Shown in pieces: positions 1,721 through 22,900 of a stretch of 64,000 nucleotides of DNA (its first letter is position 1; each line of letters opens with the position of its first letter). The stretch lies in the NCBI GenBank assembly GCA_963708025.1, contig CAVPSB010000031.1, positions 128,001 through 192,000 of the forward strand. The letters run 5' to 3'. The stretch comes from an uncultured Candidatus Rokubacteria bacterium (lineage in GTDB: Bacteria > Methylomirabilota > Methylomirabilia > Rokubacteriales > DASRDR01). The position numbers and the translations under genes are program-made. Under the pieces are notes generated by a model. It searched no databases. It was given only the letters and a program-made list of their open reading frames with translations, and was not told the DNA's origin.

Positions 1721-1737
1721 ACCGCGAAGGCCGGCCG

Positions 1738-3058: not shown

Positions 3059-3077
3059 TGCTGTTCCCTCCTGTCCT

Positions 3078-3225: not shown

Positions 3226-3355
3226 TGCGCCGGTGACCCGGCCGGGCCGGTCCCGGTCCAGCCGGGCGATGGACGCAGCACGTCCCCACCGGGGCCGGGC
3301 TCTCCAGGCGGCCGCGACCCCAGCGTGGAGCCGCTGCCGCGACGGGGCAGGCATG

Positions 3356-4991
3356 CTACGCGCCGTTGCTGAGCCGGTCCCGCCACAGGATGTGGTCCAG
3401 GCAGCGCTCGGCGAGGGCGCCGATGGTGAACGACGGATTGGCGAGGCCGGTGGACCCTTCGATCAGGGCGCCGTCCACCACGTACAGGCCCGGGTAGCGC
3501 TTCACCCGCCCGTCGAGATCGCAGGCCTTGCCCAGGACGGCGCCGCCGAGCGGGTGGGCGGACACGAACGGGTTGATCGAGAGCGTCAGCGATCCATTGC
3601 GCTGGTCCAGGACCGCGAGGGTCTGCTGCGCCGCGGCCAGGAAGTTGGCCAGCCGGGGATCGGCGGCGGGCCAGTTCAGGTCGACGGCATCGGCGGCGGG
3701 GTCGTAGGCGAAGGAGCCGATCGCGGGCGGGATGCCCAGGCTCGCGTAGTTGGCGAAGTGCGGCGGCGCGCCGACGGCCGAGAGCGCGGCGTTGATGTGG
3801 GGGGGCAGCACGAGCTCGACGAGGCTGGTGGGCCCGAACGGGTTGTCGAGGTCCTCCAGGATGAAGTGCCCGGCGGGGCCGCCCGTCCCCGCGTTGGTCG
3901 GCGGCAGGAGGCCCCGCGTCACGGGCAGGTCGCCGTTGGCCGCCCAGTGCTGGCCGACGTGGTCGTTCAGCGCCGGCAGCGCCCCCGTGGCCCGCGCGCG
4001 GACGAGCAGGCTCGTCGTGCCGACGGAGCCCGCGGCGAGGAACAGGTACTTGCACACCAGGCGCCGGGGCGCGCCCACGACGTCCCCGTCGTCGCTGAGG
4101 CGGAGCGTCGTCACCACGTAGCGGCCGCCGGGACCCCGCTCGATCGCGACCACCTGGTGCAGGGGCAGGATCTCGACGTGGCCCGTCGCCTCGGCCCGGG
4201 CGAGGTAGTTGCGATCGAGGCTGCGCTTGGCCCCGCTGTTGAGCCCGTAGAACGACTGCCCGGCGATGGCGGAGGGGACCCGCCGGCCGGCGATCTCGTC
4301 GCGCACGATGTCCCAGTCGACGGCCAGGTCGACCGGGCGCGTCGGGAATCCCGCCGTCCGGGCCTGGGCCAGGCTCACGCGGCTGGAGCGGTAGTACTCC
4401 GTGGCCAGGATGTCGTCGGGAATCGGCGCCGAGCGGATGATCCCCTTGACGCGCGGGTAGTACACGTCCTCCATCTCGTCGAAGTCGATCTGCCCGCGGG
4501 AAGAGGCGCTCGAAGAGCTCGCGGCGCGGCTTCACGATGATGGCGTTGAAGACGAGCGAGCCGCCGCCCACGCCCGCGCCGGCGCCGATGTAGATGCCGT
4601 TGCCCTCGGTGACGCCGTTGCCCTCGATGACCTCGAGGACGCCGACGTACCGGTCGATGGGCTTCTCGAGCTGGGGCAGGCCCAGGATCGCCTCGCCGGT
4701 GCGGTCGCGCAGCCAGTAGGCGCGCCCGTCGGGCTGCTCGAACGTCGCGAAGGTGTCGCCGTCGCGCCGGATCGGCCAGCGCCGGCCCCGCTCGAGCACG
4801 ACGGTGTCGATGCCGGCGTGCCCGAGCCTCAGCGCGGCGACCGCGCCGCCGAAGCCGCTGCCGATGACGACGGCGGGAACGAAGTCGGAGTGGCGTGCCC
4901 ACGCCCGGTGGCTGGAGCCGACGAGGCCGGCGCCGGCCGCCGCGAGAATTCCGCCTCGCAGGAACTGGCGCCTCGAGAGGTCCCTGGACAT
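3356..4991 (-). CDS. Tat-exported GMC oxidoreductase, cholesterol oxidase-like (copy A; +1 frameshift near 4491)
   Basis: SRRQFL Tat motif, VVIGSGFGG FAD site, GVGGGSLV, AHPLGG, NPSFTI; split between ORFs 2673-5021 and 3356-4474. Confidence 0.85.
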
Positions 4992-5017
4992 GGCGTTTCC
5001 CCCTTGCTTCCAGTCGG

Positions 5018-5290
5018 TCATGGCCGCTGGGCGTCCTGGATGATCCCGTCGAGCAGCTCGGCGGGGTCGGAGATCAGCATGCCGTGTACCGCGTCCGGGC
5101 CGGACACCTCGACGAGCCCGGTTCGCCGGCGGTCAGGTACTCGTGGAGCAGGGCCTGCTCCTCCGGGCGGACGATGACGTCCTGCTCGAAGCCGACGACC
5201 CGCATGCGTGGTCCGGGCGTGGGGGCGAAGATCCTGGCCTCGATCGAGGGGTGGGCCAGAGGCGGCGCGCCGATCAGGGCAAGCGCGGGA
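5018..5290 (-). pseudogene. C-terminal fragment of an alpha/beta-hydrolase-like gene, cut at the inverted-repeat element
   Basis: VVGFEQDVIVRPEEQ...EVSGPDAVHGMLISDP resembles the catalytic Asp/His half; no N-terminal half. Confidence 0.4.
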
Positions 5291-5486: not shown

Positions 5487-5545
5487 ATCCTGCGCTCCGT
5501 GATCATCGGGTCCTCCTCCGGTTCCCAGCAGTCATCCCCGTGTCG

Positions 5546-6982
5546 CTACAGCGCGAACGGGAGTGACGCGGGCGGCGTGGCCTGGCCGGAGCCGTTGTCG
5601 CCCCAGCACGCCACGGTCCCGTCGCCCCGGATGCCGCACGTGTGAGTGCGCCCCGCGGAGACCTGGCTGAAGGGGCCGCCGGGCGGCGTGGCCTGGCCGG
5701 AGCCGTTGTCGCCCCAGCACGCCACGGTCCCGTCGCCCCGGATGCCGCACGTGTGCAAGCCCCCCGCGGAGACCTGGCTGAAGGGGCCGCCGGGCGGCGT
5801 GGCCGCGCCGAAGCCGTTGAAACCCCAGCACGCCACGGTCCCGTCGCCCTGGATGCCGCACGTGTGAAAGCCCCCCGCGGAGACCTGGCTGAAGGGGCCG
5901 CCGGGCGGCGTGGCCTGGCCGGAGCCGTTGACGCCCCAGCACGCCACGGTCCCGTCGCCCCGGATGCCGCACGTGTAATTGACCCCCGCGGAGACCTGGC
6001 TGAAGGGGCCGCCGGGCGGCGTGGCCTGGCCGGAGGCGTTGACGCCCCAGCACGCCACGGTCCCGTCGCCCCGGATGCCGCACGTGTGACTGACCCCCGC
6101 GGAGACCTGGCTGAAGGGGCCGCCGGGCGGCGTGGCCTGGCCGAAGCCGTTGACACCCCAGCACGCCACGGTCCCGTCGCCCCGGATGCCGCACGTGCTC
6201 AGGCCCCCCGCGGAGACCTGGCTGAAGGGGCCGCCGGGCGGCGTGGCCTGGCCGAAGAAGTTGTCGCCCCAGCACAGGACCCCGCCGAGGCGGGTCAGCC
6301 CGCAGGTATGACTGTTGCCCGCGTCCACTCCGGGCTGCGTCGCGAACGCAGCTCTCAGCACGACGCCACCCGGGCAGGTCAGCGTGACCAGGCCGAGGGT
6401 GCCGTCGAACGCGGCCGCGCAGCCGCCTCCCGAGCCCGGCGGTCCCTGCGGCCCCTGGGCGCCCGTGGCCCCGGTCTCGCCCTTCTCTCCCGGGATCCCC
6501 TGAACGCCCTGGAGCCCCGGCAGCCCCTGGATCCCCTGGATTCCCTGCGGCCCTGGCTCCCCCTGGACGCCCTGCATGCCTGGCGGCCCCTGAGGTCCTG
6601 GCTTTCCCTGGGGTCCCGGATCACCCGGCGGCCCCGGCTCGCCCCCGCCGCCGATCGCCACCTCGAACGGAAGCGCCGGGATCGGGAGCGCGCCGCCGCG
6701 GATCACCAGGAGTTGGTAGCTGGCCGGCTCGATGCCGACCGGCAGCGCGGCGACGATCTCCGTCGGCGAGTGGAGGAGCACCGTCAGCGGCACCCCGGCG
6801 AGCCGCACGCCGGGCGTCGCCGGCCCGAAGTTCACGCCCCAGACCGTGAGCCGCAGGCTCTCCAGGTCCGCGTCCACCCGCAGGATCAGCGGCACGGGCA
6901 GGTCGGCCCGCGCCGCGACCGCGAAGAGCAGCACCGTGATGATCCCGAACAGCCCCACCCCCAGCCGTCCCACCCTGGTCAT
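5546..6982 (-). CDS. secreted protein: Ig/IPT-like domain, collagen Gly-X-Y stalk, 7 RCC1/BLIP-II repeats (copy A)
   Basis: signal peptide; GxNFG..P.V.L.G motif; GPQ/GPP triplets; VSAGxxHTCG...VACWGxNxxGQATPP x7. Confidence 0.9.
5570..6328 (-). repeat. intragenic tandem repeat, 7 x 111 bp
   Basis: near-identical 37-codon units. Confidence 0.95.
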
Positions 6983-6983
6983 G

Positions 6984-7253
6984 TCACGACCCTCCCTCGC
7001 CTCGAAGCCGCCTGAACATCGTCTCGATCACGGAGCCCAGCGTCTCCAGCCCCCGGAAGGTCTCCTTGCGCCCGGTCCGGACGGCCTCGACCACGCCCCG
7101 CAGCGCGCCGTCCGCGTCCTCGCTCACCGACACGACGAAGGAGCGGCGCACCCACGGCGCCTCGTCTCCGGCCGGCACCGGCCGCTCGGAGGGCGGGCTC
7201 CCGGTTGACCCGGAGGGCCCTGGGGAGCGCTCGCCTCGCCGTGTCGCTTTCAC
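6984..7253 (-). CDS. small conserved hypothetical protein (copy A; start uncertain)
   Basis: SFVVSV...[23 protein letters not shown] is homologous to 19617-19814. Confidence 0.65.
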
Positions 7254-7357
7254 CGCGCCATCGTCCACCCGGCTCGTGAACGATGCGTTAAAGCCGCGCC
7301 GACACAGGCTTGTCATGGGCGGGTCCGTGGGGTAGGGTAGGGCCCGGTCGCCACCTC

Positions 7358-10300
7358 ATGGCGCGGCTCACGCTGACGCTGCTCGGGGGGTTCGAGGGCC
7401 GGCTCGACGAGAGCCATCCCCTCTCGCTGTCCGCCCGCAAGGCCTGGGCGCTCCTCGCCTACCTCGCCGTGCCGCCCGGCCGGGCGCACCCCCGGGACAA
7501 ACTGGCCGCGCTGCTCTGGGGCGGAGTTCCCGAGCCCCAGGCCCGGACGAGTCTCCGCCAGGCGCTCTTCGCTCTCCGGCGCGCCCTGGGCGAGGCCGCC
7601 CCCCTCCTGGTGATGGAAGGCGAGGGCGTGAGCCTGGCCGCGCCGGGCGTGGCGGTGGACGCGGTCCGCTTCGAGCAGGGGCTGGGCGCCGACGGTCGGG
7701 TCCCGCTCGAATCCGCGGTCGAGCTCTACCGGGGAGACTTGCTCGCCGGCCTGGCCGTGGACGAGCCGCCCTTCGAGGAGTGGCTCATGGCGCAGCGCGA
7801 GCGCCTGCGGGAGCTGGCGCTGGAAGGCCTCGCCCGTCTCCTGGCCCGCCAGCGGGCGGCCGGCGCCCTGGAGGCGGGGGTGACACCGCGATCCGCCTGC
7901 TCGCCATCGACCCGCTGCAGGAGGTGGGACACCGCACCCTCATGCGGCTCTATGCCGCGCTCGGCCGCCGTGGCGACGCGCTCCGCCAGTACCGGGAGTG
8001 CGTCGCCGTGCTCGCGCGCGAGCTAGAGGCGGAGCCCGAGGCAGAGACGCGACACCTGTACCAGGAGATCCTGCGCGAGAGGCTCGGCCGACCGTCCCGG
8101 GCCGACCGTGACCGGACGGCGGCCGACCCGCTCACGACGCCGCGTCGCGACCTTGCGCCACTGGCGTCGGGGCTCACGGAGGTGCCGCTCGTGGGCCGAG
8201 CGGCCGAGCTCGATCTTCTCCGGGCGGCGCTCGACACGGCCTGGGCGGGGCATCCGCGGCTCTTCCTCGTGCGGGGCGAGGCGGGGATCGGCAAGAGCCG
8301 GCTGATCGCCGAGGGGACCACCGGAGCGGTGCGCCGAGGGGGCCGGGTCCTCGTCGGCCAGTGCCACGAGAGCGAACAGGCCTTGCCGTTCGGCCCCTGG
8401 GTTGACCTCCTGCGAACGGCGCTGGCCGAGCTCGGCCCCCAGCTCGCCGGCCTGGCCCCCGCCTGGCGGGTCGAGCTGGCGCGGCTCCTCCCGGAGCTGA
8501 GCGACGCGGCGGCGTCGCCGCCCGAAGGTCCGGCCCACCACCGGCGCCTCTTCGAGGCCGTGGCGACATTCGCCCACACCCTGGCGCGGTCACGGCCCCT
8601 CGTCCTGGTCCTGGAGGACCTCCACTGGGCCGACGAGCCGAGCCTCCGGCTCGCGGTCTCCCTCTGCCGCCGTCTCGGAGACGCGCCCGTCCTCGTCGTG
8701 GCGAGCGTCCGCGAGGAAGACCTGGCCGACACGCCCGAGCGCGCCCACGTGCTCGACCTCGTCACGGAGGCGGCGGCGACGGTGACCCTCGGGCCGCTCT
8801 CCCGTCCCGATATCGCCCGCCTGGTCGCGGCGCTCGGCCGGCGCGGGGCCGACGTGATGACCACGAGCCAGCTGGCCGACCGCGTGTGGGCCGTGAGCGA
8901 GGGGCATCCGCTCATGGCCGTCGAGGCCACCCGGGCCTACGGGGCCGAGCCGGAGGCCCCCGGGGCCGGGCCGGAAGCCCCCGCGGCCAGGCTGGCGCTC
9001 CCCGAGCGCATCCACGACCTCGTCGTGCGGCGCCTTCGCCGGGTGAGCGACGCCGGCCGCGCCGTTCTCGCGGGGGCGGCGGTCGCCGGACGCCCGGTCG
9101 ACTTCGCGGTCCTGCAGCAGGCGGCCGGTCTCGCCGAGGCGGATGCCGCGGCGGCCGTCGAGGAGCTCGTGCGGCGCCGGCTCCTGCGCGAGGTCGGCGA
9201 GGGGCTCGTGCTCACGCACGACCGCGTGCGAGAGGTGGTGTACGGGGGGCTCCTCGCCCCGCGGCGGCGGCTGCTGCACCGGCGGGTGGCCGAGGCCCTC
9301 GAGGCCCAGGTCAGCGGGCGCACCGAGCCGCACGCGCTCGCGCTCGGCCGCCACTTCGAGGCAGCGGAAGCGTGGGACAAGGCCGCCCGGTACCTGCGCC
9401 AGGCGGGGCTCGACGCCTTCGCCCGGGGCGCCAGCCGCGAGGCGGCGCAGTCGCTCGAGCGGGCGCTCGGGGCGGCGGAGCGGCTTCCGGCCGGCCGGCC
9501 CCGCCAGGAGCAGCTGATCGATCTCCGGCTCGACCTGCGCCTGGCGCTGGCCCCGCTGGGCGAGGTCGAGCGCGTCCTCCGGTACCTGGAGGAGGCCCGC
9601 AGCCTCGCCACGACCCTGGGGGACGCGCGCCGGTCGGCGCGCGCCAGCGTGCTGATGAGCTACTGCTTCCACTGGATGGGCCAGCCGGCCCGCGGCCTCG
9701 AGTCGGCCCGCCAGGCCCTGGCGATCGCGTCCGACCTGGACGACCGGGTCCTCGCCATCGAGGCCAGCTACCACCTCGGCCAGACGGCCATCCCCCTCGG
9801 GCGCTTCCGCGACGCGCTCGAGGCGCAGCAGAAGGTCCTCGCGCTCCTCGAAGGCGCCGGGGGCGATGTCCGCCTGAGTCTCCCCTACCGGCCCGCCGTC
9901 GCGTGCCGGATCTACATCGGCCTCTGCCTCGGCTTCCTGGGGGAGTTCGCGGACGCCGGCGTGTCCCGGCAGGAGGGGCTCCGGCTGGCGGAATCGGTGG
10001 ACCACGTGAACACCCGCGCGTTCGCGCTCCAGGGTGCCGGGTGGCTCGCCCTGATCCAGGGCGAGGCGCTCGAGGCGATCCCGCCGCTCGAGCGGGCCCT
10101 CGAGATCTGCACCCGGTTCGACATCGTCCCGACGTGGCCGGTGGCCGCCACGCTGCTCGGCTGGGCGTACGCCCTGACCGGACGACCGCCGGAGGGCATC
10201 GCGCTCGTCGAGGAAGCCGAGCAGCGGAGCGCCCGACTCCGGCTGGAGCTCGTCCACGGCGGAGCCCTGGCCGCACTGTCCGAGGCCTATCTCCTGGGCG

Positions 10301-10656
10301 ACCGCCGGGCCGACGCGCAGGCGGCCAGCCAGCGCGCCCTCGAGGCGGCGCGGGCTCACCAGCAGCGGTGGCAGGAGGCCGAAGCGCTCAGGGTCCGGGG
10401 CGACATCGTGGCGGCCGGAGCGGCCGGGCTCGAGGCGGATTCCTGGTACGGGGAGGCCCTGGCGCTGGCCTCGACGCTCGGCATGGCGCCCCTCGTGGCG
10501 CGGTGCCGGTTCGCGCGCGCGATGCTGCTCCGCCGGGAGGGGCACGAGGAAGACGCGCAGGCAGAGATGGAGGCCGCACGCCAGTCGTTCCGACGCATGG
10601 GCATGAAGACCTGGCTGGAGCGGACGGAGGCGACCCTCATCGGGGGAGCGCTGATC
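7358..10656 (+). CDS. SARP/BTAD-AAA ATPase-TPR transcriptional activator (copy A; frameshift near 7882; no stop before the next gene as read)
   Basis: LTLLGGF, LLAYLA, REKLA-type RDKLAALLWG, LYRGDLLAG, FEEWL; Walker A GEAGIGKS; LVLEDLHWAD; helical TPR tail. Confidence 0.85.
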
Positions 10657-12285
10657 GTGACGGGACCCGTCCCCATCGACCGCCGGAGCTGGCTGAGGCT
10701 CGCCGGAGCGGCCGCCGCGGCTTGTTCGGTCGGCGCCACCGCGAGCCCGACGCCGAAGCGCGGCGGCGTGTTCCGCCTCCGCGGCGAGGACCCGACGACC
10801 GGCTTCGACCCGCATCGGACCGTCTCCTTCCGGACGTTGACCACGCTGTCCCTGACGCACAGCCGGCTGGTGAAGGTGAAGGCCGGGACGGGCGTCGCCC
10901 CCGGGACCGTGCCGCTGGAGCCGGACCTGGCCGAGTCGTGGACGCGACCCGACGACAGGACCTATCTCTTCCGGCTCCGCCGCGGCGCCCGCTGGCATCC
11001 GAAGCCCCCGGTGAACGGCCGGGAAGTGACCGCGGAGGACGTCAAGTACACCTACGATCGCTTCCGCGCGATCACCGGGAATCCTGCCCGGAGCCTGCTG
11101 GATCCGGTGGAGAAGATCGAGGCGCTCGACCGGTACACGGTCCGGTTCGTCCTCACGGAGCCCTTCGCGTGGTTCCTGGACGTGCTCGCGTCCACCTCGA
11201 TGTGGATCGTGCCGAAGGAGGCCGTCGACCACTGGGGCGACCTCCGGCGCGCGGAGGCGTGCGTCGGCACCGGACCCTGGATGCTCGAGCGCTACGAGCC
11301 CGGCGTCCGGCTCACCTTCGCGCGGAACCCGCATTACTTCCTCGCGGACCTCCCGTACGCCGACGCCGTCGAGGTGACCGTGGACGCCGATCCCGCGTCC
11401 AGGCTGGCGGCATGGCTGGCGGGGCAGTACGACTTCGCGCCCGAATACGACATGGTCGTGCGTCGCGTCGATCTCGACCTCGTCCAGCGCCGGAAGCCGG
11501 GGCTCCAGACCGCGGAGTTCGTCTGGCTCGTGGGCGCGCTGGGCGCCCTTCGCCTGGATCGAGAGCCGTTCAAGGACCTGCGCGTCCGGCAGGCGCTGGC
11601 CCTCGCCGGCAACTGGAGGGAGGGGCTCGACGCCAACGCGTTCGCCCAGGGCCACGGTGTTCCCAACCCCGCGGTTCCGGCAGCCTTCCGGGAGTGGTCC
11701 ATTCCCATCGACCAGCTTCCCGCCGCCGGCCGTCGGGTCTACGAGCAGAGCCTCCCCGAGGCCCGGCGGCTTCTGGTCGAGGCCGGCTACCCGAACGGGC
11801 TGAAGATCCCGGTCGAGACCACGGCCGGCTACGGCCCCGACTACATGGACCTGGTGCAGGTCCTGCTGAAGAACTGGAAGGCGGCGGGTGTCGAGGCCGA
11901 CCTGCGGCTGAAGGAGTACGGCGCGTTCCTGGCGAGCGCCGTCTTCGGGAAATTCGACGCGCTGGCCCTCAGCCTGCTCGGCGCCTGGACGGAGCCCGAC
12001 AGCTATCTCTACCGGCTCCACATGCCGGGTCAGCCGACGAACGCGAGCGGTGTCGACGACCCGAGGCTCAGCGAGATGATCCGCCTTCAGCGCCGCGCCT
12101 TCGACCCGGCGCGGCGCCGCCAGATCCTGTACGACATCCAGCGCTACCTCTCCGAGCGGGTGTACTACCTCTACGACGCCTCGATCAGCGTCGTGGCCGC
12201 CTGGGAGCCATACGTCAGGAACTTCGCCCCGAACTTCGGCCACGACTACGGGGGGCGGCTGATGGTCGCGTGGCTCGACCGATAG
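10657..12285 (+). CDS. ABC transporter peptide/nickel substrate-binding protein (family 5)
   Basis: GTG after GGGGAG; DRRSWL Tat-like signal; PKRGG, LEPDLAESW, GTGPW motifs. Confidence 0.88.
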   Translation: MTGPVPIDRRSWLRLAGAAAAACSVGATASPTPKRGGVFRLRGEDPTTGFDPHRTVSFRTLTTLSLTHSRLVKVKAGTGVAPGTVPLEPDLAESWTRPDDRTYLFRLRRGARWHPKPPVNGREVTAEDVKYTYDRFRAITGNPARSLLDPVEKIEALDRYTVRFVLTEPFAWFLDVLASTSMWIVPKEAVDHWGDLRRAEACVGTGPWMLERYEPGVRLTFARNPHYFLADLPYADAVEVTVDADPASRLAAWLAGQYDFAPEYDMVVRRVDLDLVQRRKPGLQTAEFVWLVGALGALRLDREPFKDLRVRQALALAGNWREGLDANAFAQGHGVPNPAVPAAFREWSIPIDQLPAAGRRVYEQSLPEARRLLVEAGYPNGLKIPVETTAGYGPDYMDLVQVLLKNWKAAGVEADLRLKEYGAFLASAVFGKFDALALSLLGAWTEPDSYLYRLHMPGQPTNASGVDDPRLSEMIRLQRRAFDPARRRQILYDIQRYLSERVYYLYDASISVVAAWEPYVRNFAPNFGHDYGGRLMVAWLDR

Positions 12286-12413
12286 GCCGCTGGCGATAGC
12301 CGGCCGCTGGTCCATCCCGGCCGCCAGCCGTCGAGGATCGCGAAGCGTCGCCGTCCCGAGGCATGGTCCCGGGACGCCCCGCGGCCCCTGCCTGAGCACT
12401 TCTCGCCTACCTT

Positions 12414-12993
12414 GCCGTTGCCGCCCGGCCGGGCGCTTCCCTAGACGCTCGAGATCTGCCGGGCCCTGTGGTGCTGCGACGGTGTCGGCTTCGCGGGCCG
12501 GCACTTCAAAAAGCACGACGTCACCATGGAGCCGAAGCCGCACCGCCCCGGCGGGCCGCCCATCTGGATCGGCGGCAGCGGCCCCACCGCGCTCCGCGAG
12601 GCCGCGCGCTTCGACGCCTGGTCCCCCACCGGCCCCGGCGTCGAGTACTTCGCCGAGCACTTCCCCGGCGTCCAGGCCGCCGCCCGCGCCGCCGGCCGCC
12701 CTGCCGACGCCGTGACCGGCGCGGCCTACGTCACGCTCGCCCTCGACCCCAGCCCCGCGGCCGCCGAGCAGCGGCTTCACGCCTTCCTGGAGACCTACTA
12801 CGCGGTGCCGGCACGCGCGATCATGGCCCGCCAGGCCACCTACGCCGGGCCGATCGAGGGCTGCGCCGAGTGGCTCCAGCGCTGGATCGACACCGGCTGC
12901 AGCCACTTCTGCCTCCGCTTTGCCGGCGGCGACCAGCTCGCCCAGGTGGACGAGACGGCCTCCCGGCTCCTCCCGCGGCTGCGCTCGCGCTAA
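12414..12993 (+). pseudogene. 5'-truncated duplicate of the LLM oxidoreductase
   Basis: near-identical to 1255-1715; degenerate with a stop upstream of 12526; N-terminal third missing. Confidence 0.85.
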
Positions 12994-13138
12994 GCGCGAT
13001 CACGGCGTCCGGGGCTCGTGTGTTGGCGGCGGCGCCAGGGTCGGGCTGGTTGCTCCTCGTCCTCTTGCCGACCCCGCATGTCGGCTTCCCGCAGGGCAGG
13101 GGACACGAAACGAGTGAATGATGTAAGATTTCGGGCGG

Positions 13139-13489
13139 ATGAGCCCTCTCCATCACGATGCAGCACAAGGGGACCTCCTCCGGCAGGTCAGGGACCGGAT
13201 CATGACCGCGGACGGTCGTGCCGTGCGCCGGCTGATCCTCTTCGGATCCCGTGTCCGTGGCGATGCGAGACCGGACAGCGACTATGACATCCTCGTGCTG
13301 GTGACCGGCATGGACGCGGCGCAGCGCTCGGCGTTCGCGTCCAGGCTCTACCGGGCGATGGAAGGCCTCGGCGTCAGCGTCGAGCCGTGGGTGATGAGCG
13401 AGCAGGAGTTCGAGGAGAGCAAGACGGTCGTCGGCGGTCTGGCCCATCCGGCGTGGAAGGAAGGAGTCGTCTTCCATCCGGACGCCTGA
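13139..13489 (+). CDS. minimal nucleotidyltransferase (MNT/MntA-like)
   Basis: ILFGSRVRGDARPDSDYDILV motif. Confidence 0.88.
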   Translation: MSPLHHDAAQGDLLRQVRDRIMTADGRAVRRLILFGSRVRGDARPDSDYDILVLVTGMDAAQRSAFASRLYRAMEGLGVSVEPWVMSEQEFEESKTVVGGLAHPAWKEGVVFHPDA

Positions 13490-13505
13490 GCAAGTCCGGT
13501 GGGAC

Positions 13506-13822
13506 TAGTCCTGGGGCTGGGCGACCCGATCGTCTACACCCGGCCGCTGGAGCGGCTGGGACTCGCGCCCGCGACGCTCGACGCCGGGCTGCGCGCCCGA
13601 CTGGACCCGGCGATCTTCGGCCTGATGGAAGGGCGCGCCGACACCGCCTCGGCGGCCATCGCCCGCGAGGCGGTCGCCACGCTCCGCGCGCGCGGCGTCG
13701 ACGGGATCATCCTCGGCTGCACCGAGATCCCCCTGCTGCTCCAGGACGCCGCCGACGCACCGGACCTGATCGACCCGGCCCAGCTCCTCGTTGACGCCGC
13801 GCTCCGCCACGCCTTGACGTGA
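13506..13822 (+). pseudogene. 5'-truncated duplicate of the racemase
   Basis: near-identical to 2113-2427; first half absent. Confidence 0.85.
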
Positions 13823-13982
13823 CCCGGCGGCCGCCGCCCCGGGAGCGGGCATGGCGTCCTTCCGTGTGACGCGGTGAAGCTCTCGGTCTGGCGGCCTTGC
13901 GCGGGCGGCGGGCGACGCCTCTAGCTGCTAGCGGACCTCGGTCCTCGCCTTCTACTGCCAGGAACGGTGAGCGGGATATGGG

Positions 13983-14609
13983 CTACCCCTGGCCCTCGGC
14001 TGGCGTTCGCGCCCTCTCCACGAGCCGCACCAGTACCTCGTAGGGCTGCGCGCCCACGACGCCCCAGCGGCCGGCGACGAAGGTCGGCACGCCGCTGATC
14101 CCGAGCTCGCGCGACAGCGCCCAGTCGGCATCGATGGCTGCCTCGAACGTCCGCCGCTCCAGCACCTCGCGCGCGGCCTCGACCGGGAGGCCGACGCGCT
14201 CGGCGATCTCCAGCAGCACCGCGGGCTTCGAGATGTCGCGGGCCTCCACGAAGTAGGCGCGGAAGAGTGCCTCGTGGATGGCCTCGCCGCCCGGCTGCGT
14301 GTCGGCCCACTTGCCCAGCTCCTGCGCCAGCCGGCTGTTGTACGTCATCGTGCGCTCGCCGTAGGGAAGGTCCTCGGCGTCCATGCGCGCCTTCATCTGG
14401 GCGTGCATGGCCTGCCGGTCCAGGTTGCGTCCCGCGAAGAGGTCGTCCAGGGAGCGGCCTTCCGCCGGGGTGTCCGGGTGCAGCGGGAAGTGCACCCACT
14501 CGACCTTCACGCCGTGCTCGGCCTTGAGCCTCTCAATACGCACGGTACTGAGATAGCACCAGGGTCAGACGTAGTCGGTGAAGACCTTCAGCGTGACCGG
14601 CTCGCTCAT
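13983..14609 (-). CDS. DsbA/FrnE-family thiol-disulfide oxidoreductase, predicted selenoprotein (UPWC)
   Basis: MSEPVTLKVFTDYV-TGA-PWCY; TGA (14565-14567) sits at the first Cys of CxxC; GISGVPTF and GAQP motifs; GGAGG-like RBS. Confidence 0.88.
14531..14553 (-). promoter_or_regulatory. putative bacterial SECIS hairpin
   Basis: UCUCAGUAC-CGUGC-GUAUUGAGA, a 9-bp stem starting 11 nt after the UGA. Confidence 0.7.
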
Positions 14610-14635
14610 GAGGCCTCCTCTGGGGCCGGAGAGGA

Positions 14636-15985
14636 TCAGCCCAGGAGCAGCTCGCACACCTCGAGCCACGCCTGGGTGGTCAGCGCGAGCGACTCCACGT
14701 CCACGCGCTCGTCGTTCCCGTGGAACCGCCCGCCCATCGCCTCGGCGGTCAGGGCCCGTGAGAAGAGGCCGAAGCCGTAGGCGATCGCGCCCCGATCGCG
14801 GAAGTAGGGCGCATCGGTGAAGCCGACGATCATCTTCGGCAGGAGGCGGGCGCCCGGGTAGTGCGCGTCCACCACCCGGCCCAGCACGTCCCACAGCGGG
14901 GTACCGGTGGGCGACACCGAGGCCGGCTTGGAGAAGAGCCGCTCGACCTCGACCTCCTCGGCCAGGCCGCCGAGGGCCTTGTCGAGGTGCCGGCGCACCT
15001 CGTCCTCGCTGTCGCCGGGGACGGTGCGGATGTCCACCTCCACGTCGACCGTGTCCGGGATCACGTTGGTCTTGACCCCGCCGTGGCAGACGTTCGGCGA
15101 GAGCGTCGTGTGGGTGGCCGACCACGCGAGCCGGGCCAGGCGCGGGTCGAGCCCGGCGATCGCCTCGTCGACGCGGGAGGGGTCGGCCAGGGCGGCCTTC
15201 GTGGCCGGGTCGAGGTGGAGCGTGTCGACGAAGGCCCGCCACAGCTCGTCGACATAGGGCGCCGGGCGGTAGTCGGCCAGGCGGCTCACCACCCGGGCGG
15301 CCTTCACCAGCGCGTTGTTCGCGCCGTACGGCATCGAGCCGTGGCCGGGCGTGCCCTTCACCCGGAGCCGCCGCCAGGCGACGCCCTTCTCGCCGACGTG
15401 CACGGTGACGGCGAGCTCGCCGGTCGCGCCGCGGCTCACCGTTCCCCCGTTCTCGGTGAGGCAGTAGTCGGCCCGGAGAGCGTCCCAGTGCCGCTCGCAC
15501 ACGTAGCCGGCCCCCAGCGTGCCGCCGGCCTCCTCGTCGGCGCAGGCGAGGTAGACGAGCGAGCCGCGCGGCCGCCAGCCGGCGGGCCGGCGGGCCAGGG
15601 CGCGGAGCGCGACGGCCTGGGAGGCGGTGATGTTGAGCATGTCCACCGCGCCGCGGCCCCACACCTCGCCGTCGACCAGCTCGCCGCCGAACGGATCGCG
15701 GGTCCAGGCCTTCGGGTTCACCGGCACGACATCGGTGTGGCCCATCAGGCACAGCGTGGGCGCCGTGGGGTCGCTCCCCTCGATCCGGGCGACCAGGCTC
15801 CCGCGGCCGGGGGCGTGAGGCGGCTGGTACACCTCGATGTCGAGGCCGCTGCCTTCCAGGTAGCTCCTCAGGGTGTCGCTGTTGCGCGACTCCTGGCCCG
15901 ACGGGAGGGTGCCGTCGTTGACACACTGGTTGCGAATCAGCTGCTGGAGCAACTCGACGGTCTGGCCGGTCAATGCGTCGTCCAT
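14636..15985 (-). CDS. M20/M25/M40 metallopeptidase
   Basis: GHTDVVP, WGRGAVDM, ADEEAGG, HGNDERV. Confidence 0.92.
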   Translation of the reverse strand: MDDALTGQTVELLQQLIRNQCVNDGTLPSGQESRNSDTLRSYLEGSGLDIEVYQPPHAPGRGSLVARIEGSDPTAPTLCLMGHTDVVPVNPKAWTRDPFGGELVDGEVWGRGAVDMLNITASQAVALRALARRPAGWRPRGSLVYLACADEEAGGTLGAGYVCERHWDALRADYCLTENGGTVSRGATGELAVTVHVGEKGVAWRRLRVKGTPGHGSMPYGANNALVKAARVVSRLADYRPAPYVDELWRAFVDTLHLDPATKAALADPSRVDEAIAGLDPRLARLAWSATHTTLSPNVCHGGVKTNVIPDTVDVEVDIRTVPGDSEDEVRRHLDKALGGLAEEVEVERLFSKPASVSPTGTPLWDVLGRVVDAHYPGARLLPKMIVGFTDAPYFRDRGAIAYGFGLFSRALTAEAMGGRFHGNDERVDVESLALTTQAWLEVCELLLG

Positions 15986-16197
15986 GACGGTATCCTAGCC
16001 AGCGGCGGCCGCGCTGTCGAGGGCGGGGTCAGGCCCGCTCGAAGAGCGCCTGGACCGAGACGATGCGGTGCTCCTCGCGATTCCCGGGTGGCGCGGTGGC
16101 ACGTGGGCTCCGCGTCCATCGCGCCATCCTAACGCGGATCGTCAGCCAGGCCACCCTCGCCGCCGCAGGCCTTCCCTCCCCACCGGAGCGCCGGGAG

Positions 16198-17834
16198 CTA
16201 CGCGCCGTTGCTCAGCCGGTCCCGCCCCAGGATGTGATCCATGCAGCGCTCGGCGAGCGCGCCGATGGTGAACGACGGATTGGCGAGGCCGGTGGACCCT
16301 TCGATCAGGGCGCCGTCCACCACGTACAGGCCGGGGTAGCGCTTCACCCGCCCGTCGAGATCGCAGGCCTTGCCCAGGACGGCGCCGCCGAGCGGGTGCG
16401 CGGACACGAACGGGTTGATCGAGAGCGTCAGCGATCCATTGCGCGCGTCCAGGACCGCGAGGGTCCGCTGCGCCGCGGCCAGGAAGTTCGCCAGCCGGGG
16501 ATCGGCGGCGGGCCAGTTCAGGTCGACGGCATCGGCGGCGGGGTCGTAGGCGAACGAGCCGATCGCGGGCGGGATGCCCAGGCTCGCGTAGTTGGCGAAG
16601 TGCGGCGGCGCGCCGACGGCCGAGAGCGCGGCGTTGATGTGCGGGGGCAGCACGAGCTCGACGAGGCTGGTGGGCCCGAACGGGTTGTCGAGGTCCTCCA
16701 GGATGAAGTGCCCGGCGGGGCCGCCCGTCCCCGCGTTGGTCGGCGGCAGGAGGCCCCGCGTCACGGGCAGGTCGCCGTTGGCCGCCCAGTGCTGTCCGAC
16801 GTGGTCGTTCAGCGCCGGCAGCGCCCCCGTGGCCCGCGCGCGGACGAGCAGGCTCGACGTGCCGACGGAGCCCGCGGCGAGGAACAGGTACTTGCACACC
16901 AGGCGCCGGGGCGCGCCCACGACGTCCCCGTCGTCGCTGAGCCGGAGCGTCGTCACCACGTAGCGGCCGCCGTGACCCCGCTCGATCGCGACCACGCTGG
17001 TGCAGGGGCAGGATCTCGACGTGGCCGGTCGCCTCGGCCCGGGCGAGGTAGTTGCGATCGAGGCTGCGCTTGGCCCCGCTGTTGAGCCCGTAGAACGACT
17101 GCCCGGCGATGGCGGAGGGGATCCGCCGGCCGGCGATCTCGTCGCGCACGATGTCCCAGTCGACGGCCAGGTCGACCGGGCGCGTCGGGAATCCCGCCGT
17201 CCGGGCCTGGTCCAGGCTCACCCGGCTGGAGCGGTAGTACTCCGTCGCCAGGATGTCGTCGGGAATGGGCGCCGAGCGAATGATCCCCTTGACGCGCGGG
17301 TAGTACACGTCCTCCATCTCGTCGAAGTCGATCGCCCGCGGGAAGAGCGCGCTCGAAGAGCTCGCGCCGCGGCTTCACGATGATGGCGTTGAAGACGAGC
17401 GAGCCGCCGCCCACGCCCGCGCCGGCGCCGACGTAGATGCCGTTGCCTTCGGTGACGCCGTTGCCCTCGATGACCTCGAGGACGCCGACGTACCGGTCGA
17501 TGGGCTTCACGAGCTGGGGCAGGCCCAGGATCGCCTCGCCGGTGCGGTCGCGCAGCCAGTAGGCGCGCCCGTCGGGCTGCTCGAACGTCGCGAAGGTGTC
17601 GCCGTCGCGCCGGATCGGCCAGCGCCGGCCCCGCTCGAGCACGACGGTGTCGATGCCGGCGTGCCCGAGCCTCAGCGCGGCGACCGCGCCGCCGAACCCG
17701 CTGCCGATGACGACGGCGGGAACGAAGTCGGAGTGGCGTGCCCACGCCCGGTGGCTGGAGCCGACGAGGCCGGCGCCGGCCGCCGCGAGAATTCCGCCTC
17801 GCAGGAACTGGCGCCTCGAGAGGTCCCTGGACAT
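16198..17834 (-). CDS. Tat-exported cholesterol oxidase-like GMC oxidoreductase (copy B; frameshifts near 17350 and 16997)
   Basis: near-identical to 3356-4991. Confidence 0.85.
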
Positions 17835-17860
17835 GGCGTGTCCCCCTTGCTTCCCGTCGG

Positions 17861-18135
17861 TCATGGCCGATGGGCGTCCTCGATGATCCCGTCGAGCAGC
17901 TCGGCGGGGTCGGAGATCAGCATGCCGTGCACCGCGTCCGGCCCGGACACCTCGACGAGCCCGGTTCGCCGGCGCCGTCAGGTACTCGTAGAGCAGGGCC
18001 TGCTCCTCGGGGCGGATGATGACGTCCTGCTCGAAGCCGACGACCCGCAGCGTGGTCCGGGCGTGAGGGGCGAAGATCCGGGCCTCGATCGACGGGCGGG
18101 CCAGAGGCGGCGCGCCGACCAGGGCAAGCGCGGGA
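17861..18135 (-). pseudogene. hydrolase-like C-terminal fragment (copy B)
   Basis: near-identical to 5018-5290. Confidence 0.4.
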
Positions 18136-18333
18136 GGGGTCAGGCTTTGACTTCTTGACACTTCGAGGAACCCGAGGGGAGGTCGGCAGGCCGCCTGCCG
18201 GGCGGAGGTGGTCCCGGTGCGGCGGCCGCGAGGGTCTCCTCACTGGCTCGCCCCGGACATGCGGCACCACGCAAACTGGCCGCGTGCCCGTTCAGCGGCA
18301 GACGCCATTGGTCAGAAGTCAAAGCCTGACCCC
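18136..18333. mobile_element. 198-bp MITE/REPIN-like element (copy B)
   Basis: same perfect 20-bp inverted repeats at 18136-18155 and 18314-18333. Confidence 0.7.
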
Positions 18334-18349
18334 ATCCTGCGGCCAGTCG

Positions 18350-19557
18350 CTACAGCGCGAATGGGAGTGACGCGGGGGGCGTGGCCTGGCCGAAGCCGTT
18401 GAAGCCCCAGCACGCCACCGTCCCGTCGCCCCGGAGGCCGCACGTGTGAAAGGCCCCTGCGGAGACCTGGCTGAAGGGGCCGCCGGGCGGCGTGGCCTGG
18501 CCGTTGCCGTTGACGCCCCAGCACGCCACCGTCCCGTCGCCCTGGAGGCCGCACGTGTGATTGCCCCCTGCGGAGACCTGGCTGAAGGGGCCGCCGGGCG
18601 GCGTGGCCTGGCCGGACCCGTTGTTGCCCCAGCACGCCACCGTCCCGTCGCCCTGGAGGCCGCACGTGTGACTGCCCCCTGGGGAGACCTGGCTGAAGGG
18701 GCCGCCGGGCGGCGTGGCCTGGCCGGAGAAGTTGGCGCCCCAGCACGCCACCGTCCCGTCGCCCTGGATGCCGCACGTGTGAGAGAACCCCGCGGAGACC
18801 TGGCTGAAGGGGCCGCCGGGCGGCGTGGCCTGGCCGGACCCGTTGTTGCCCCAGCACAGGACCCGGCCGAGGCGGGTCAGCCCGCAGGTGAAATCGCCGC
18901 CCGCGCTCACTCCGGGCTGCGTCGCGAACGCAGCTCTCAGCACGACGCCACCCGGGCAGGTCAGCGTGACCAGGCCGAGCGTGCCGTCGAACGCGGCCGT
19001 GCAGCCGCCTCCCGAGCCCGGCGGTCCCTGCGGCCCCTGGGCGCCCGTGGCCCCGGTCTCGCCCTTGTCGCCCTTATCCCCCTTGTCGCCTCTGTCCCCC
19101 TTCTCGCCTTGCATCCCCTGAGGACCCTGGGGTCCCGACGGCCCTTGAATTCCCGGGATTCCCTGCGGTCCCGGCTGGCCCTGGGGTCCCTGGGGGCCCT
19201 GCGGGCCCACGGCGCCGTCTCCGCTGCCGATCGCCACCTCGAAGGGGAGCGCCGGGATGGGGAGTGGGCCCCCCCGGATCACCAGGAGCTGGTAGGTTGA
19301 CGGCTCGATGTCGTGCGGCAGCAGGGCGACGATCTGCGTCGGGGAGTGGAAGAGCACCGGGAGTGGCACGCCGGCGAGCTTCACCACCGGCGTCGCCGTC
19401 CCGAAGCTCGTGCCCAGATCGTCAGCCGCGAGCTCTCCAGGTCGGCATCCGCTCGCAGGATGAATGGCACGGGCAGGTCCGCCCGCGCCCCGACCGCGAC
19501 GACCAGCACCGCGATGATTCCGACCAGCACCACGCCCAGCCGTCCGCCTCTCGTCAT
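18350..19557 (-). CDS. secreted Ig-like/collagen/RCC1-repeat protein (copy B, 5 repeats; frameshift near 19390-19415)
   Basis: [11 protein letters not shown] signal peptide is paralogous to copy A; collagen triplets; 5 x 37-aa repeats. Confidence 0.88.
18374..18910 (-). repeat. intragenic tandem repeat, 5 x 111 bp
   Basis: near-identical 37-codon units. Confidence 0.95.
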
Positions 19558-19616
19558 GTCACGCCCTCCTCTTCTTCGTGTCTCGGCCTGACGCAATCGA
19601 GACCACGCCGACGCCG

Positions 19617-19814
19617 TCAGGAGCCCGGCGCCGGCTCGGCCTCCCCGCGCGCCAGCATCGCGGCGAGGAGCCCTCCGACGTCCTCCAGCCCGTCCACCTT
19701 GGCCTTCTCGCCGGTCCGGACCCGCTCGACCACCCCGGTGACCCGCCCGAGCCCGTCCCGGTCCAGCCGGACGATGAAGACCGCTCGGTGAAGCCCCACG
19801 CCCTCGTCCGCCAT
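19617..19814 (-). CDS. small conserved hypothetical protein (copy B)
   Basis: FIVRLDRD..GRVTGVVERVRTGEK...GLEDVG, homologous to 6984-7253 and in the same position. Confidence 0.7.
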   Translation of the reverse strand: MADEGVGLHRAVFIVRLDRDGLGRVTGVVERVRTGEKAKVDGLEDVGGLLAAMLARGEAEPAPGS

Positions 19815-19921
19815 GACGTGCCCACCATGGCCGGGGGGGCGTTAGCAAACCGTCTGCGGCGGCGTTAGTGGCTGGTAATGTGGCGGGACATCGTGCTAAA
19901 GTCCGCCCACTGGCGGCGGCC

Positions 19922-22900
19922 ATGAGCCGGCTCAGCTTGAGGCTCTTCGGCGGCTTCGAGGTGGAGGGGGACCTCGGACGGCACCGCGTTGTCCCGACCC
20001 GGAAGGCCCAGGCCCTCCTCGCCTACCTGGCGCTCACGCCCGGCCAGACCCATCCGCGGGACAAGCTGGCCGCGCTCCTCTGGGCCGACACGCCCCCGGG
20101 GCCGGCCCGTACCGCGCTCCGCCAGACCCTCTTCGTCCTCCGGAAGGCGCTCGGCGCCGCCGACGGCGCCCCGCTCGTCATGACGGGCGACGCCGTCGCG
20201 CTGCCGTCGGAGGCCGTGCAGACGGACGTCGGCGGCGTTCGAGCGGGCGGTCGCCGAGGGGACGCCGGCCGCGCTCGAGCACGCGGTCGGGCTCTACCGG
20301 GGCGACCTGTTGGCCGGGCTCGGCGTCGCCGCGCCGATCTTCGAGGACTGGCTCATGAGCGAGCGGGAGCGGCTCCGCGAGCTGGCCCTCGAGGCCCTCG
20401 CGCGGCTCCTCGCCCACCAGCGGACGCGCCGGCGCGACCGCGCCCGCGATGCAGACGGCGCTCCGGCTCCTCGCCCTCGACCCGCTGCAGGAGGCCGTGC
20501 ACCGGACGCTGATGCGCCTCTACGCGCAGCTCGGGCGGCGCGACGCCGCGCTCCGCCAGTACCAGGAGTGCGTCGGAGATCCTCCGCCGCGAGCTGGCGG
20601 TCGAGCCCGAGGCCGAGACCCAGGCGCTGTACCGGGAGATCCTCCGGCAGCGGCCCGTGCCAGACGGCGGCGGGACGCCGGTCGCGGCCGGGCCGTCCGA
20701 GGCGCCGCTCGTCGGTCGCGACGGCGAGGTGACGCGGCTCCACGAGGCGCTGGCCGCGGCGTGGGCCGGACACGGTCGCGTCCTCGCCGTCCTCGGCGAG
20801 GCCGGGATCGGGCAAGAGCCGGCTCGCTGGCCGAGCTCGCCGCCGAGGCCGGACGCCGGGGCGGCTCGATCCTGCTCGGCCGCGCCTACGAGAGCGAGCA
20901 GATCCTGCCGTTCGGGCCCTGGGTCGACTGCGCTCCGGCACGCCGGCGTCCTGATCGACGCGAGGTCCCTGGAGGGTCTCGAGGCGCGTCTGGCTGCGCG
21001 GAGCTGGCGCGCCTGTTCCCGGAGCTGGCGCAGGCCGACCCGCCAGCGGCGGCCGACCCCGGAGACCAGCTCGCGCCTGTTCGAGGCCCTCGCCCGGCTG
21101 CTCCGGCATCTCGCCGTCGCGCCGGCCGCTCGTCGTCCTGCTGGAGGACGTGCCACTGGGCGGACGACATGAGCCTGCGCTTCCTCGCGTTCCTCGGCCG
21201 CCGCCTGCACGCGGCGCCCATCCTGGTGGCGATCAGCGTCCGCGAGGAGGAGGTGATCGACAGCCCGCTGCTTCGCCGCGACGCTCGACGAGCTCGCGGC
21301 CGAGGGGCGGCTGGTCCGCCTGACGCTGCCGCATCGCTCGACCATGACGACACGCTGGCGCTCGTCCGTCTGCTCGGGCGCGCGGACAGCCGGGCGGTCG
21401 CCGTGACGCAGCGGGGCGAGCAGGTCTGGGCGGCCAGCGCCGGCAATCCGTTCATCGTGGTCGAGACGATGCGCGCGATCGGTGACGGGTCCGAGGTGGA
21501 GTCCCTGGCCAGCCTGCCGGTCCCGACGCGGGTCCGGGACATGATCGCCCGCCGCCTCGACCGCCTCCAGCCGCTCGGACGGCAGCTCGCCAGCGTGGCC
21601 GCCGTCATCGGCCGCGAGTTCGACTTCGCCTTGCTCCAGGAGGCCGCGGGTCTCGATCCCCGCGACGCGGCCGAGGGCCTCGAGGAGCTGGTCCGCCGGC
21701 GCGTGGTGCACGGGGTCGGCGACCGCTTCGACTTCACGCACGACCGGATCCGGGAGGTGGCGTCTGGCCGGCTCTTGCTCCCGCGCCGGCGCGCGCTGCA
21801 TGGCGCCGTGGCGGCCGCGATGGAAGCGCTGCACGCGGGGAGCCTCGAGCCCCACTACGCGGCGCTGGCCTTCCATTATCGGGAAGGCGAGACATGGCCG
21901 AAAGCGCTCGAGTATCTCCAGCGGGCGGGCGCCCAGGCCATGGCCCGCGGCGCCTACCGGGAAGCGGCGACCTGCCTCGAACAGGCGCTCACCGCCGCCG
22001 AGCGCCTGGCCGGCCCGGAGGCAGCGCAATCGGCCCTGGAGCTGCGCCTCCGCCTGCGGAACGCGCTCCTGCCTCTCGGAGACCAGGCCCGGATGCTCGA
22101 CAACCTCCGGGAGGCGGAAGCCCTCGCCGAGCGGCTGGGCGATCAGCGCCGGCTCGGCTGGATCCTTTCGTACTCGGCTCTGGAGGTCTGGCGGCTCGGC
22201 GATCGGAGCGGGCGATCGGTCTCGCCGGGCGGGTCCTCGCCATCGCCGGGACTCTCGACGACGCCGGCCTGCGCATCATCGCGGGGATTCGACTGGGGCA
22301 GGCCTTTCACGGCCTCGGTCGGTACGCCGAGGCGATCGACGCGCTGCGGACGACGACCGCCGAGCTACACGGCGACCGGCGACGCGAGCAGTACGGTCTG
22401 TCGGCCCCACCCTCGGTGATCGCCCGGACCTGGCTCGCCTGGTGCCTGGCGGAGCGCGGGGAGTTCGCCGAGGGTCAGCGTCACGCCGAGGAGGGGCTCG
22501 CCATCGGCGAGGAGGTGAACCAGCCCTACCCGCTCGTGGCGGCGTGCTTCGGGCTCGGCCTCCTCCACCTCCGGCGCGGCAACGTCAACGATGCGATCCG
22601 CCTGCTCGAGCGGGGCATGGCGCTCGGTCGAGTCCGGGAGATCCCGGTCTTCTCCGCCTGGACCGCATCGTCGCTCGCCCTGGCCTACCTGCTGGCCGGC
22701 CAGCCCGAGCGAGGCCGGCCTCTCCTGGAGCCGCCCGTGGAGTCCGACATCCTGGCGAAGGCGGCCCAGCAGGCGTTCCCGTTCCTGTGGCTGGGCGAGG
22801 CGCATCTCCTGGCCGGTCGCCTCGACGCGGCCGCCGAGCGCGCCCGCCAGGCGCTCGGCCTCGCCCGCGCCCGGCGCGACCGCGGACACGAGGCGTACGC

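Follow-up and report, generated by a model that had tools for sequence, protein, structure and literature searches.

Two paralogous genes, A and B, lie in a window of 64,000 nt (positions 128,001–192,000 of contig CAVPSB010000031.1) from the genome of an uncultured Candidatus Rokubacteria bacterium (GCA_963708025.1), and each carries a tandem array of 111-bp units that are almost identical outside a few codons. The explanation judged best, and considered likely, is that this is a secreted binder of the BLIP-II type, in which the blades of a beta-propeller were amplified, homogenised by recombination and diversified by selection at their loop residues. An initial annotation of the sequence had suggested adenine mutagenesis of AAC and AAT codons, as in diversity-generating retroelements (DGRs), possibly from a trans-acting template.

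Variation is concentrated in six codons of each unit

Tandem Repeats Finder identified a period of 111 at 5569–6275 (6.4 copies, 93 % matches) and at 18373–18857 (4.4 copies, 91 % matches), and in-register extraction yielded 12 units of 37 codons that align without gaps. The earlier description of 12 repeats (7 + 5), nearly identical outside two clusters, is thereby confirmed. Six codons of every unit are variable, namely 9–11, 26, 28 and 29. Among the ten inner units (A2–A7 and B2–B5, with the cap units A1 and B1 left out), 23 of 105 nucleotide columns vary, comprising 14 of the 18 columns in variable codons versus nine of the 87 others (Fisher p = 1.8e-8). This restriction of variation to particular sites is far beyond chance. 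All 12 alleles of the first cluster are different, and nine of the 12 in the second are distinct.

A table of codon usage by position reproduced each regularity on which the initial annotation had relied. The codon directly after S-A-G, codon 9, has C in its third position in 12 of 12 units; codon 10 has T there in ten of 12 (AGT three times, AAT and TTT twice each, ACT, GAT and TCT once each, the others being CTG and TTG); and codon 26, which follows C-W-G, is NNC in 12 of 12. Codon 27 is AAC in every unit, as the annotation had itself cautioned. The first cluster had been written as three free residues after SAG, but the third of these, encoded by codon 11, is His in most units (CAC in 8 of 12). 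Cys is present at unit positions 13 and 23 in all 12 units.

Gene A encodes a predicted secreted propeller on a collagen-like stalk

The product of gene A consists, in order, of a signal peptide, a weak IPT/TIG-like domain, a collagen stalk, a short Cys-containing linker and a seven-blade propeller of the RCC1_2/BLIP-II type (Table 1). The match to RCC1_2 (PF13540) extends over seven stretches and scores 180 bits (E 3e-54) against a cut-off of 22 bits, while the TIG match (15.2 bits) lies under its cut-off of 20.9 bits. The collagen stalk also matches collagen chains in the PDB. Translation and Pfam, together with a by-eye reading of the signal, thus bear out the proposed architecture of signal peptide, collagen and propeller. 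The blades, labelled RCC1 in the initial annotation, are of the 37-residue RCC1_2/BLIP-II type and not the classical 50–60-residue RCC1 type. Judged by its resemblance to BLIP-II and to recognition proteins on collagen stalks, the gene A product would be a secreted, and probably trimeric, binder of an extracellular target.

Gene B shares 80 % protein identity with A over residues 48–402, and these are the only two propeller genes in the genome. A run of G is 1 nt shorter in B than in A, so the signal peptide of B is out of frame with the remainder of the gene. The earlier claim of two secreted proteins therefore holds for gene A, with its predicted Sec signal, but not for gene B, whose signal is frameshifted and not intact as assembled.

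The module of signal, IPT-like domain and collagen also occurs in five loci of related genomes (L004, L005, L006, L008 and L009), with other C-terminal heads and no propeller; in four of them (L004, L005, L006 and L008) the IPT-like module precedes the collagen. At the level of sequence, this suggests a modular family of collagen-stalked proteins.

The variable codons map to the ligand-contact positions of the fold

AlphaFold2 was applied to residues 200–478 with a 40-sequence alignment and predicted a seven-bladed propeller of 21 strands (7 x 3), with a predicted local distance difference test score (pLDDT) of 94.8 and a predicted template modelling score (pTM) of 0.90. A single-sequence prediction of the whole protein was discarded (pLDDT 37). 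The top Foldseek matches were the BLIP-II chains 1jtd_B and 3qhy_B (E ~1e-20, TM 0.76–0.80), followed by CRINKLY4 (CR4/ACR4), UVR8 and RCC1, and sequence searches agreed (BLIP-II, E ~1e-23; ACR4, E 3.7e-24). Each blade is modelled with three strands and one Cys pair. The blade Cys columns are invariant or nearly so in the 40 homologues and align with the blade cysteines of plant ACR4.

In the model, the strands occupy unit positions 2–7, 11–16 and 21–25, positions 8–10 form the turn between strands 1 and 2, and positions 26–29 come directly after strand 3. Since the strands form an antiparallel meander, both variable clusters are predicted at the same end of the blade, with the G-D-G turn at the opposite end. 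Independent placement came from BLIP-II, for which the available text of PMC10817188 lists 22 residues that contact beta-lactamases. Of these, 21 map to unit positions 9–11 or 26–29, and the remaining residue, Thr57, to position 33. This was a hand count on a HMMER alignment with an offset of 38, in which the residue letter matched at 22 of 22 sites and the printed 'Tyr19' was taken as Tyr191. The mapping indicates that the variable codons are the ligand-contact positions of this fold, and the part of bioRxiv 10.1101/2024.08.26.609822 that was available describes binding by BLIP-II through apical beta-turns and interblade loops. The expectation that the variable residues share one propeller face is therefore supported, with the placement argued from strand topology and the BLIP-II mapping rather than from coordinates.

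Amino acid replacement outruns silent change at the loop codons

The proportions of non-synonymous (pN) and synonymous (pS) change were obtained by a Nei–Gojobori-type count between paralogous units of the array. For the framework of the ten inner units, pS was 0.069 and pN 0.025, while for the six variable codons pN was 0.411 and pS 0.087. The loop codons thus show about sixfold more non-synonymous change than the synonymous background, while their silent change is unremarkable and their third positions are as conserved as those elsewhere. This contrast is what amino acid selection gives in a recently amplified or homogenised array. Aligned codon position by codon position, the units therefore combine fast first and second positions with an ordinary third, a combination that is expected wherever amino acid change outruns silent change.

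The regularity of codons ending in C or T (NNY), which had been taken as the mark of adenine mutagenesis, can be accounted for in the same way. The GC content at third positions (GC3) of the framework is 0.97–0.98 in the window arrays, and about one codon ending in A or T is therefore expected per 37-codon unit. The ancestral unit would have had this codon at position 10, from which it has been inherited. The variable codons look like NNC and NNT because third positions keep the ancestral letter, mostly C, with T in codon 10. Minimum spanning trees of the observed codons imply at least 26 non-synonymous changes, of which one is at position 3. The share expected at that position, 14.4 % of non-synonymous single-step paths, corresponds to 3.7 changes, and the deficit is not significant (P = 0.09 for one or fewer). 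The step sizes in these trees were also considered as an argument for stepwise mutation and were dropped, because with 5–8 of 16 possible states occupied single steps are expected. Other family members carry TGG, CAG, GAG, CTG and similar codons at the same sites, so there is no family-wide NNY rule. As a special signal, the NNY regularity is not upheld.

In other high-GC family members (loci L063, L018 and L053), codons with T in the third position are over-represented among the six loop codons; in L063, 11 of 42 loop codons are of this kind at a framework GC3 of 0.94. Codons with fast turnover seem, from these sequences, to lag in their adaptation to codon usage.

Framework homogenisation and probable movement of loop patches

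Repeats are more alike within each gene than between the paralogues at silent sites, with a framework pS of 0.024 in A2–A7 and 0.045 in B2–B5 versus 0.069 across all ten inner units. Gene-specific letters are common to the units at the third position of codon 20, the third position of codon 7 and the first position of codon 15; codon 20, for example, is ACC in all six inner units of A and ACG in all four of B. These letters agree with the initial view that the repeats are homogenised while the contact codons diversify.

The two genes also lie in a tandem segmental duplication, in which the identity between copies is a mosaic ranging from 66.6 % to 96.2 % in a self-BLAST of the window. A tract of ~3.1 kb that looks recently converted, from the end of the collagen to the end of the neighbouring oxidoreductase gene, forms the 94.6 %-identical part of both blocks (3355–6053 versus 16197–18857). 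Identity is 85.1 % in the 5' half of the propeller genes and 66.6 % at the DNA level in the neighbouring regulator. This pattern indicates conversion between the two blocks.

Several observations concern the loop clusters themselves. The second cluster is the same throughout in units B1 and B3, down to a synonymous GGG, and A5 and B5 share 17 of 18 nucleotides of their variable codons. Evidence from public sequencing runs consisted of Logan contigs, none of which spans the stretch; the best run carries 0.32 of its words. One contig, from run X2 (208 nt, depth 2.1, 156 nt aligned), covers 5545–5700 and has five differences, all in the loop codons of A7 and including the synonymous CAC>CAT, so that 5 of 20 loop nucleotides versus 0 of 136 others are changed (p = 2e-5). 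Together, the B1/B3 cluster, the A5/B5 sharing and the X2 contig point to patches that move by conversion. Sharing between A and B units gave no significant sign of positional orthology, as 63 of 360 permutations reach the observed value.

Two further public runs, X1 and X3, carry the gene B letter at 6398, in X3 also at 6418, and are otherwise like A over window positions 6317–6800. These contigs may derive from B-like copies, or from recombinants between A and B, in related populations.

In the mechanism proposed here, a single 37-codon unit would have given rise to the blades by recent amplification, and homologous recombination inside each array (unequal exchange or gene conversion) would keep them alike. 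This recent amplification and within-array recombination would be why framework DNA is almost identical between blades, and the putative ligand contacts at the two apical loop clusters why replacement is fast there. The densely mismatched loop clusters would either escape homogenisation or be selected to differ. Point mutation would supply new loop states, with diversifying or directional selection favouring a heterogeneous binding face, and whole loop patches are probably carried between blades in short conversion tracts. Gene B would be a frameshifted five-blade paralogue in a decaying duplicate block.

Several points weigh against this mechanism. Although A5 and B5 share nearly all of their variable-codon nucleotides, their frameworks differ most of any inner pair (8 of 87 nt), and at least some loop states must therefore be old or copied, not newly mutated. 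A1 and B1 with the adjoining linker differ at 12 of 18 variable-codon nucleotides versus 5 of 232 others. Point mutation and selection alone are strained by this contrast, so that patch conversion or an unknown targeted process is also needed. Selection is read from counts between paralogous units rather than from a likelihood codon model, because searches recovered no orthologue above 68 % identity. Unit order and unit number depend on an assembly of 49 contigs with 8.18 % contamination and on fragmentary public contigs, and the putative ligand binding, trimerisation and secretion are argued by analogy.

Alternative explanations

If the units were DGR targets, they would be variable repeats rewritten from a template, possibly elsewhere in the genome, by an error-prone reverse transcriptase (RT) that randomises the adenines of AAC and AAT codons. 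Five codons that vary at positions 1 and 2 with position 3 fixed as C or T fit this scheme, as does the X2 contig, whose five differences from unit A7 all fall within variable codons. The genome (8.17 Mb in 49 contigs, ~72 % G+C, completeness 99.67 %) may be a metagenome bin, and DGRs are often on mobile DNA that binning can lose, so that an RT on unbinned DNA is conceivable. However, the defining features of a DGR, which the available parts of PMC3240598 and PMC5703328 give as RT, template repeat and adenine-specific change, did not appear. The initial annotation had already reported no RT in the window, and a Pfam scan agreed, with no RT domain among 27 open reading frames (ORFs). A search of the organism's own, nearly complete genome with PF00078 (RVT_1) returned 0 candidates and 0 matches at E <= 0.01; the same search was positive in 3 of 14 known genomes. 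A blastn search of the 49 contigs with one unit (word size 7, E <= 1e-3) recovered only the 12 array units, with no thirteenth copy that could serve as a template. No unit has A at all variable positions (0 of 12). Eight A columns are invariant in the ten inner units, including both adenines of AAC-27, which stands between variable codons, and the varying columns also take in ordinary synonymous third positions. Codons outside NNY occur at the variable sites (CTG, TTG and GGG twice). Adjacent units share loop states (15 of 18 nt in A3/A4 and 14 of 18 nt in A6/A7), which argues against a DGR since independent rewriting from a template would erase such sharing. A simple scan found no inverted repeat of >=8 bp, as a target hairpin would form, within 30 nt downstream of either array; an initiation of mutagenic homology (IMH) site can be recognised only with a template at hand. 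The fold is a propeller and not a C-type lectin or Ig domain. The DGR explanation fails and is close to refuted. To our knowledge, there is no DGR with 12 tandem variable repeats.

Amplification, homogenisation and selection also have to be set against two explanations that need no RT. Programmed cassette variation, in which a silent, frameshifted B would donate loop patches to an expressed A, and blade to blade, by short gene conversion, is improbable; it is kept in consideration because the A1/B1 contrast is so extreme. Homology arms for this exchange would be provided by the identical frameworks of 42–48 bp, in parallel with pilE/pilS, vlsE and tprK. It would explain why the blades of B are intact although the gene is out of frame, and it fits the 94.6 %-identical tract with its sign of conversion between blocks, the shared A5/B5 state and the second cluster common to B1 and B3 with its synonymous letter. 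The X2 allele changes 4 nt within 9, one of them synonymous, as a copied patch would. However, the pool of donors would be very small, with two propeller genes in the genome, and since all 12 first-cluster alleles differ, most states are without a visible donor. The A/B register test was not significant, and the decay of the whole B block, which has a truncated monooxygenase and racemase and a further frameshift in its oxidoreductase, fits a plain pseudogene. That the arrays are assembly artefacts, either chimeras of reads from co-existing strains or collapsed repeats, with part of the diversity and the frameshift present in no one genome, is quite improbable. The contamination and the number of contigs leave room for it, the frameworks shared by units are longer than a 31-mer, public-run contigs break inside the array, and the frameshift in B is a one-base change in a run of G; the available text of Pereira and Lupas raises the same caveat for repetitive propellers (PMC9218822). 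Against this, the flanks of both arrays are unique and the reading frames consistent, no unit departs from frame or register, the seven-blade array folds with high confidence in the prediction, and the same pattern recurs in 76 independent arrays, several of which lie on closed long-read chromosomes.

The same positions vary across the family

The consensus of 40 homologues has variable residues (x) exactly at AGxxH and WGxNxxG. The family is large: of 8000 candidates scored, 3641 proteins reached E <= 1e-10, and species-representative genomes from many phyla yielded 537 confirmed stretches out of 608 candidates. At least four in-register units were obtained from 76 of 78 loci, and in all 76 of these arrays blade-to-blade identity was lower at the six positions (0.11–0.48) than in the framework (0.45–0.83).

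The framework DNA identity of the window arrays, 0.88 for A and 0.83 for B with the cap unit included, compares with values of up to 0.89 in the family arrays, and the window arrays sit at the repetitive end of a continuum. Identity among the seven units of array A is 0.86 over the 31 framework positions and 0.33 over the six variable ones (mean ~0.77), and in array B it is 0.82 and 0.33, respectively. Over whole units, the arrays thus exceed the 60 % blade identity that marks highly repetitive propellers, although these values are means and the published criterion uses the median.

No close orthologue was found: the best match was 41–50 % identical in the genomes of 40 relatives, 68 % in 5.8 billion proteins and 68 % in species-representative genomes. 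An exact-pattern scan of metagenome contigs for the framework of codons 12–25, with three degenerate letters, returned 0 stretches, and tblastn confirmed none of the 596 pattern matches that metagenome contigs gave to the first 109 residues of the protein.

Genomic context

Coordinates of genes A and B and of the neighbouring features are given in Table 1. Copy 1 of the tandem segmental duplication extends over ~1156–9496. The B block looks like a decaying duplicate because its monooxygenase and racemase are truncated and its oxidoreductase has one further 1-nt insertion, at 16996.

Table 1. Features of the window (positions relative to its first nucleotide)
Feature	Coordinates	Strand	Basis
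Gene A, 478 aa (P0001)	5546..6982	-	ORF and translation; Pfam RCC1_2 E 3e-54, Collagen E 3e-13
Predicted Sec signal peptide of A, residues 1-26, ending ...AARA before D	6905..6982	-	By-eye reading of translation
N-terminal beta-sandwich-like domain of A, 85 residues, weakly IPT/TIG	6653..6904	-	Pfam TIG E 0.022
Collagen-like stalk of A, 26 uninterrupted G-X-Y triplets, residues 111-188	6419..6652	-	Pfam Collagen E 3e-13
Array A, 7 units of 111 bp (divergent cap A1 to A7)	5564..6340	-	In-register extraction
Gene B, paralogue of A with 5 units, disrupted as assembled	18350..19557	-	Three-frame translation
Frameshift site in B, GGG where A has GGGG	19413..19415	-	A/B alignment
Collagen-like stalk of B, 24 G-X-Y triplets	19001..19216	-	Triplet count
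Array B, 5 units of 111 bp (B1 cap to B5)	18368..18922	-	In-register extraction
Tandem segmental duplication, copy 2	12430..22015	.	Self-BLAST of window
GMC-type oxidoreductase, TAT signal, downstream of gene A	3356..5021	-	Pfam TAT_signal and NAD_binding_8 in one frame, GMC_oxred_C in another
Second GMC oxidoreductase copy, downstream of gene B	16198..18161	-	Pfam and frame translation
Putative regulator, 1501 aa, BTAD + AAA_16 + TPR + SBP_bac_5, upstream of and divergent from gene A	7780..12285	+	Pfam
Diverged regulator paralogue adjoining gene B	20449..22419	+	66.6 % DNA identity to 7434-9496; Pfam
Half-length luciferase-like monooxygenase at start of B block, 182 aa (full version, 346 aa, at 680-1717)	12445..12993	+	
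Racemase fragment in B block	13490..13822	+	Spans profile positions 123-211 only

Both GMC oxidoreductase copies switch reading frame once, at about the same place, and there is no indel between the copies there; the frame break is therefore either older than the homogenisation of the blocks or a shared feature. The 1501-aa putative regulator fuses BTAD (a SARP-type activator domain), AAA_16 and TPR with a C-terminal SBP_bac_5 solute-binding domain, and the DNA identity of its paralogue is far below that of the neighbouring propeller and oxidoreductase genes. The remaining window contains ordinary metabolic genes, and a Pfam scan of 17 ORFs there gave no domain of a phage, a mobile element or an RT. 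Promoter and terminator scans of 5000–7900 gave no match.

Implications and comparison with known systems

The locus provides a worked example of how retroelement mutagenesis can be separated from ordinary selection in a young repeat array. The positions by which BLIP-II grips beta-lactamase are the fast-evolving ones across a very large bacterial family, whose members, some on collagen stalks, may be a widespread class of evolvable extracellular binders. Their natural layout of a framework with variable loops could guide the design of binders. If cassette variation did operate, it would allow a secreted, collagen-stalked binder to re-tune its binding face from one strain to the next without an RT.

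Bacterial collagen-like proteins such as BclA and Scl1/Scl2 are likewise secreted or surface proteins in which a G-X-Y stalk bears a globular head for recognition, but their heads have other folds. Two database proteins, P0064 and P0067, combine collagen with RCC1_2 as the window genes do. Among the papers listed by a limited literature search, none dealt with an RCC1-type propeller on a collagen stalk, which does not show that the architecture is undescribed.

BLIP-II of Streptomyces exfoliatus (1JTD, 3QHY) is similar to gene A in being secreted and in having seven three-stranded blades of ~40 residues, with target-contact residues at the positions that vary in the window units. It differs in having no collagen stalk, IPT-like domain or blade Cys pair, its blades are well diverged and its identity to gene A is ~30 %. 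CRINKLY4 (ACR4/PpCR4; PDB 7A0J, 7A0K; bioRxiv 10.1101/2020.08.10.245050) likewise has an extracellular, BLIP-II-related propeller of seven blades with two Cys per blade, but as a receptor-kinase ectodomain with a buried N-terminal strand, a TNFR-like domain and diverged blades. Each blade of CR4 is disulfide-bonded, and a disulfide in every blade was called unique to the CRINKLY4 propellers (bioRxiv 10.1101/2020.08.10.245050). A Cys pair is present in every blade of the window arrays and is invariant or nearly so in the 40 bacterial homologues.

Variation limited to ligand-contact codons with position 3 fixed is shared with DGR proteins such as Mtd of Bordetella phage, as far as the available parts of PMC3240598 and PMC5703328 describe them, whereas the window units are without RT, template repeat and target hairpin, have invariant adenines and adopt another fold. 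A parallel in process is given by the WD repeats of the fungal HNWD genes het-d and het-e, for which the available text of Paoletti, Saupe and Clave (2007, PMC1805685) reports concerted evolution within and between paralogues and positive diversifying selection at a few surface residues. The window arrays resemble these in combining concerted evolution with apparent positive selection at a few residues of an interaction surface. The HNWD proteins differ in that they are eukaryotic, intracellular STAND/NLR proteins with WD40 blades, and the repeat-induced point mutation (RIP) hypermutation proposed for them is without a bacterial counterpart here.

A precedent is the catalogue of 10,480 highly repetitive propellers by Pereira and Lupas (2022, PMC9218822), in which, according to the available part of the article, the RCC1/BLIP-II type is the third largest group (10 %) and mostly bacterial. 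Such propellers are described there as having arisen by amplification of a single blade, with gene-specific nucleotides in all blades, an excess of non-synonymous change and many frameshifted copies, and genes A and B share each of these features. That part of the account contains no description of variable blade positions, of a collagen stalk or of this gene pair. The locus is a further case of the highly repetitive RCC1/BLIP-II propellers already described, and its pattern is not special to it.

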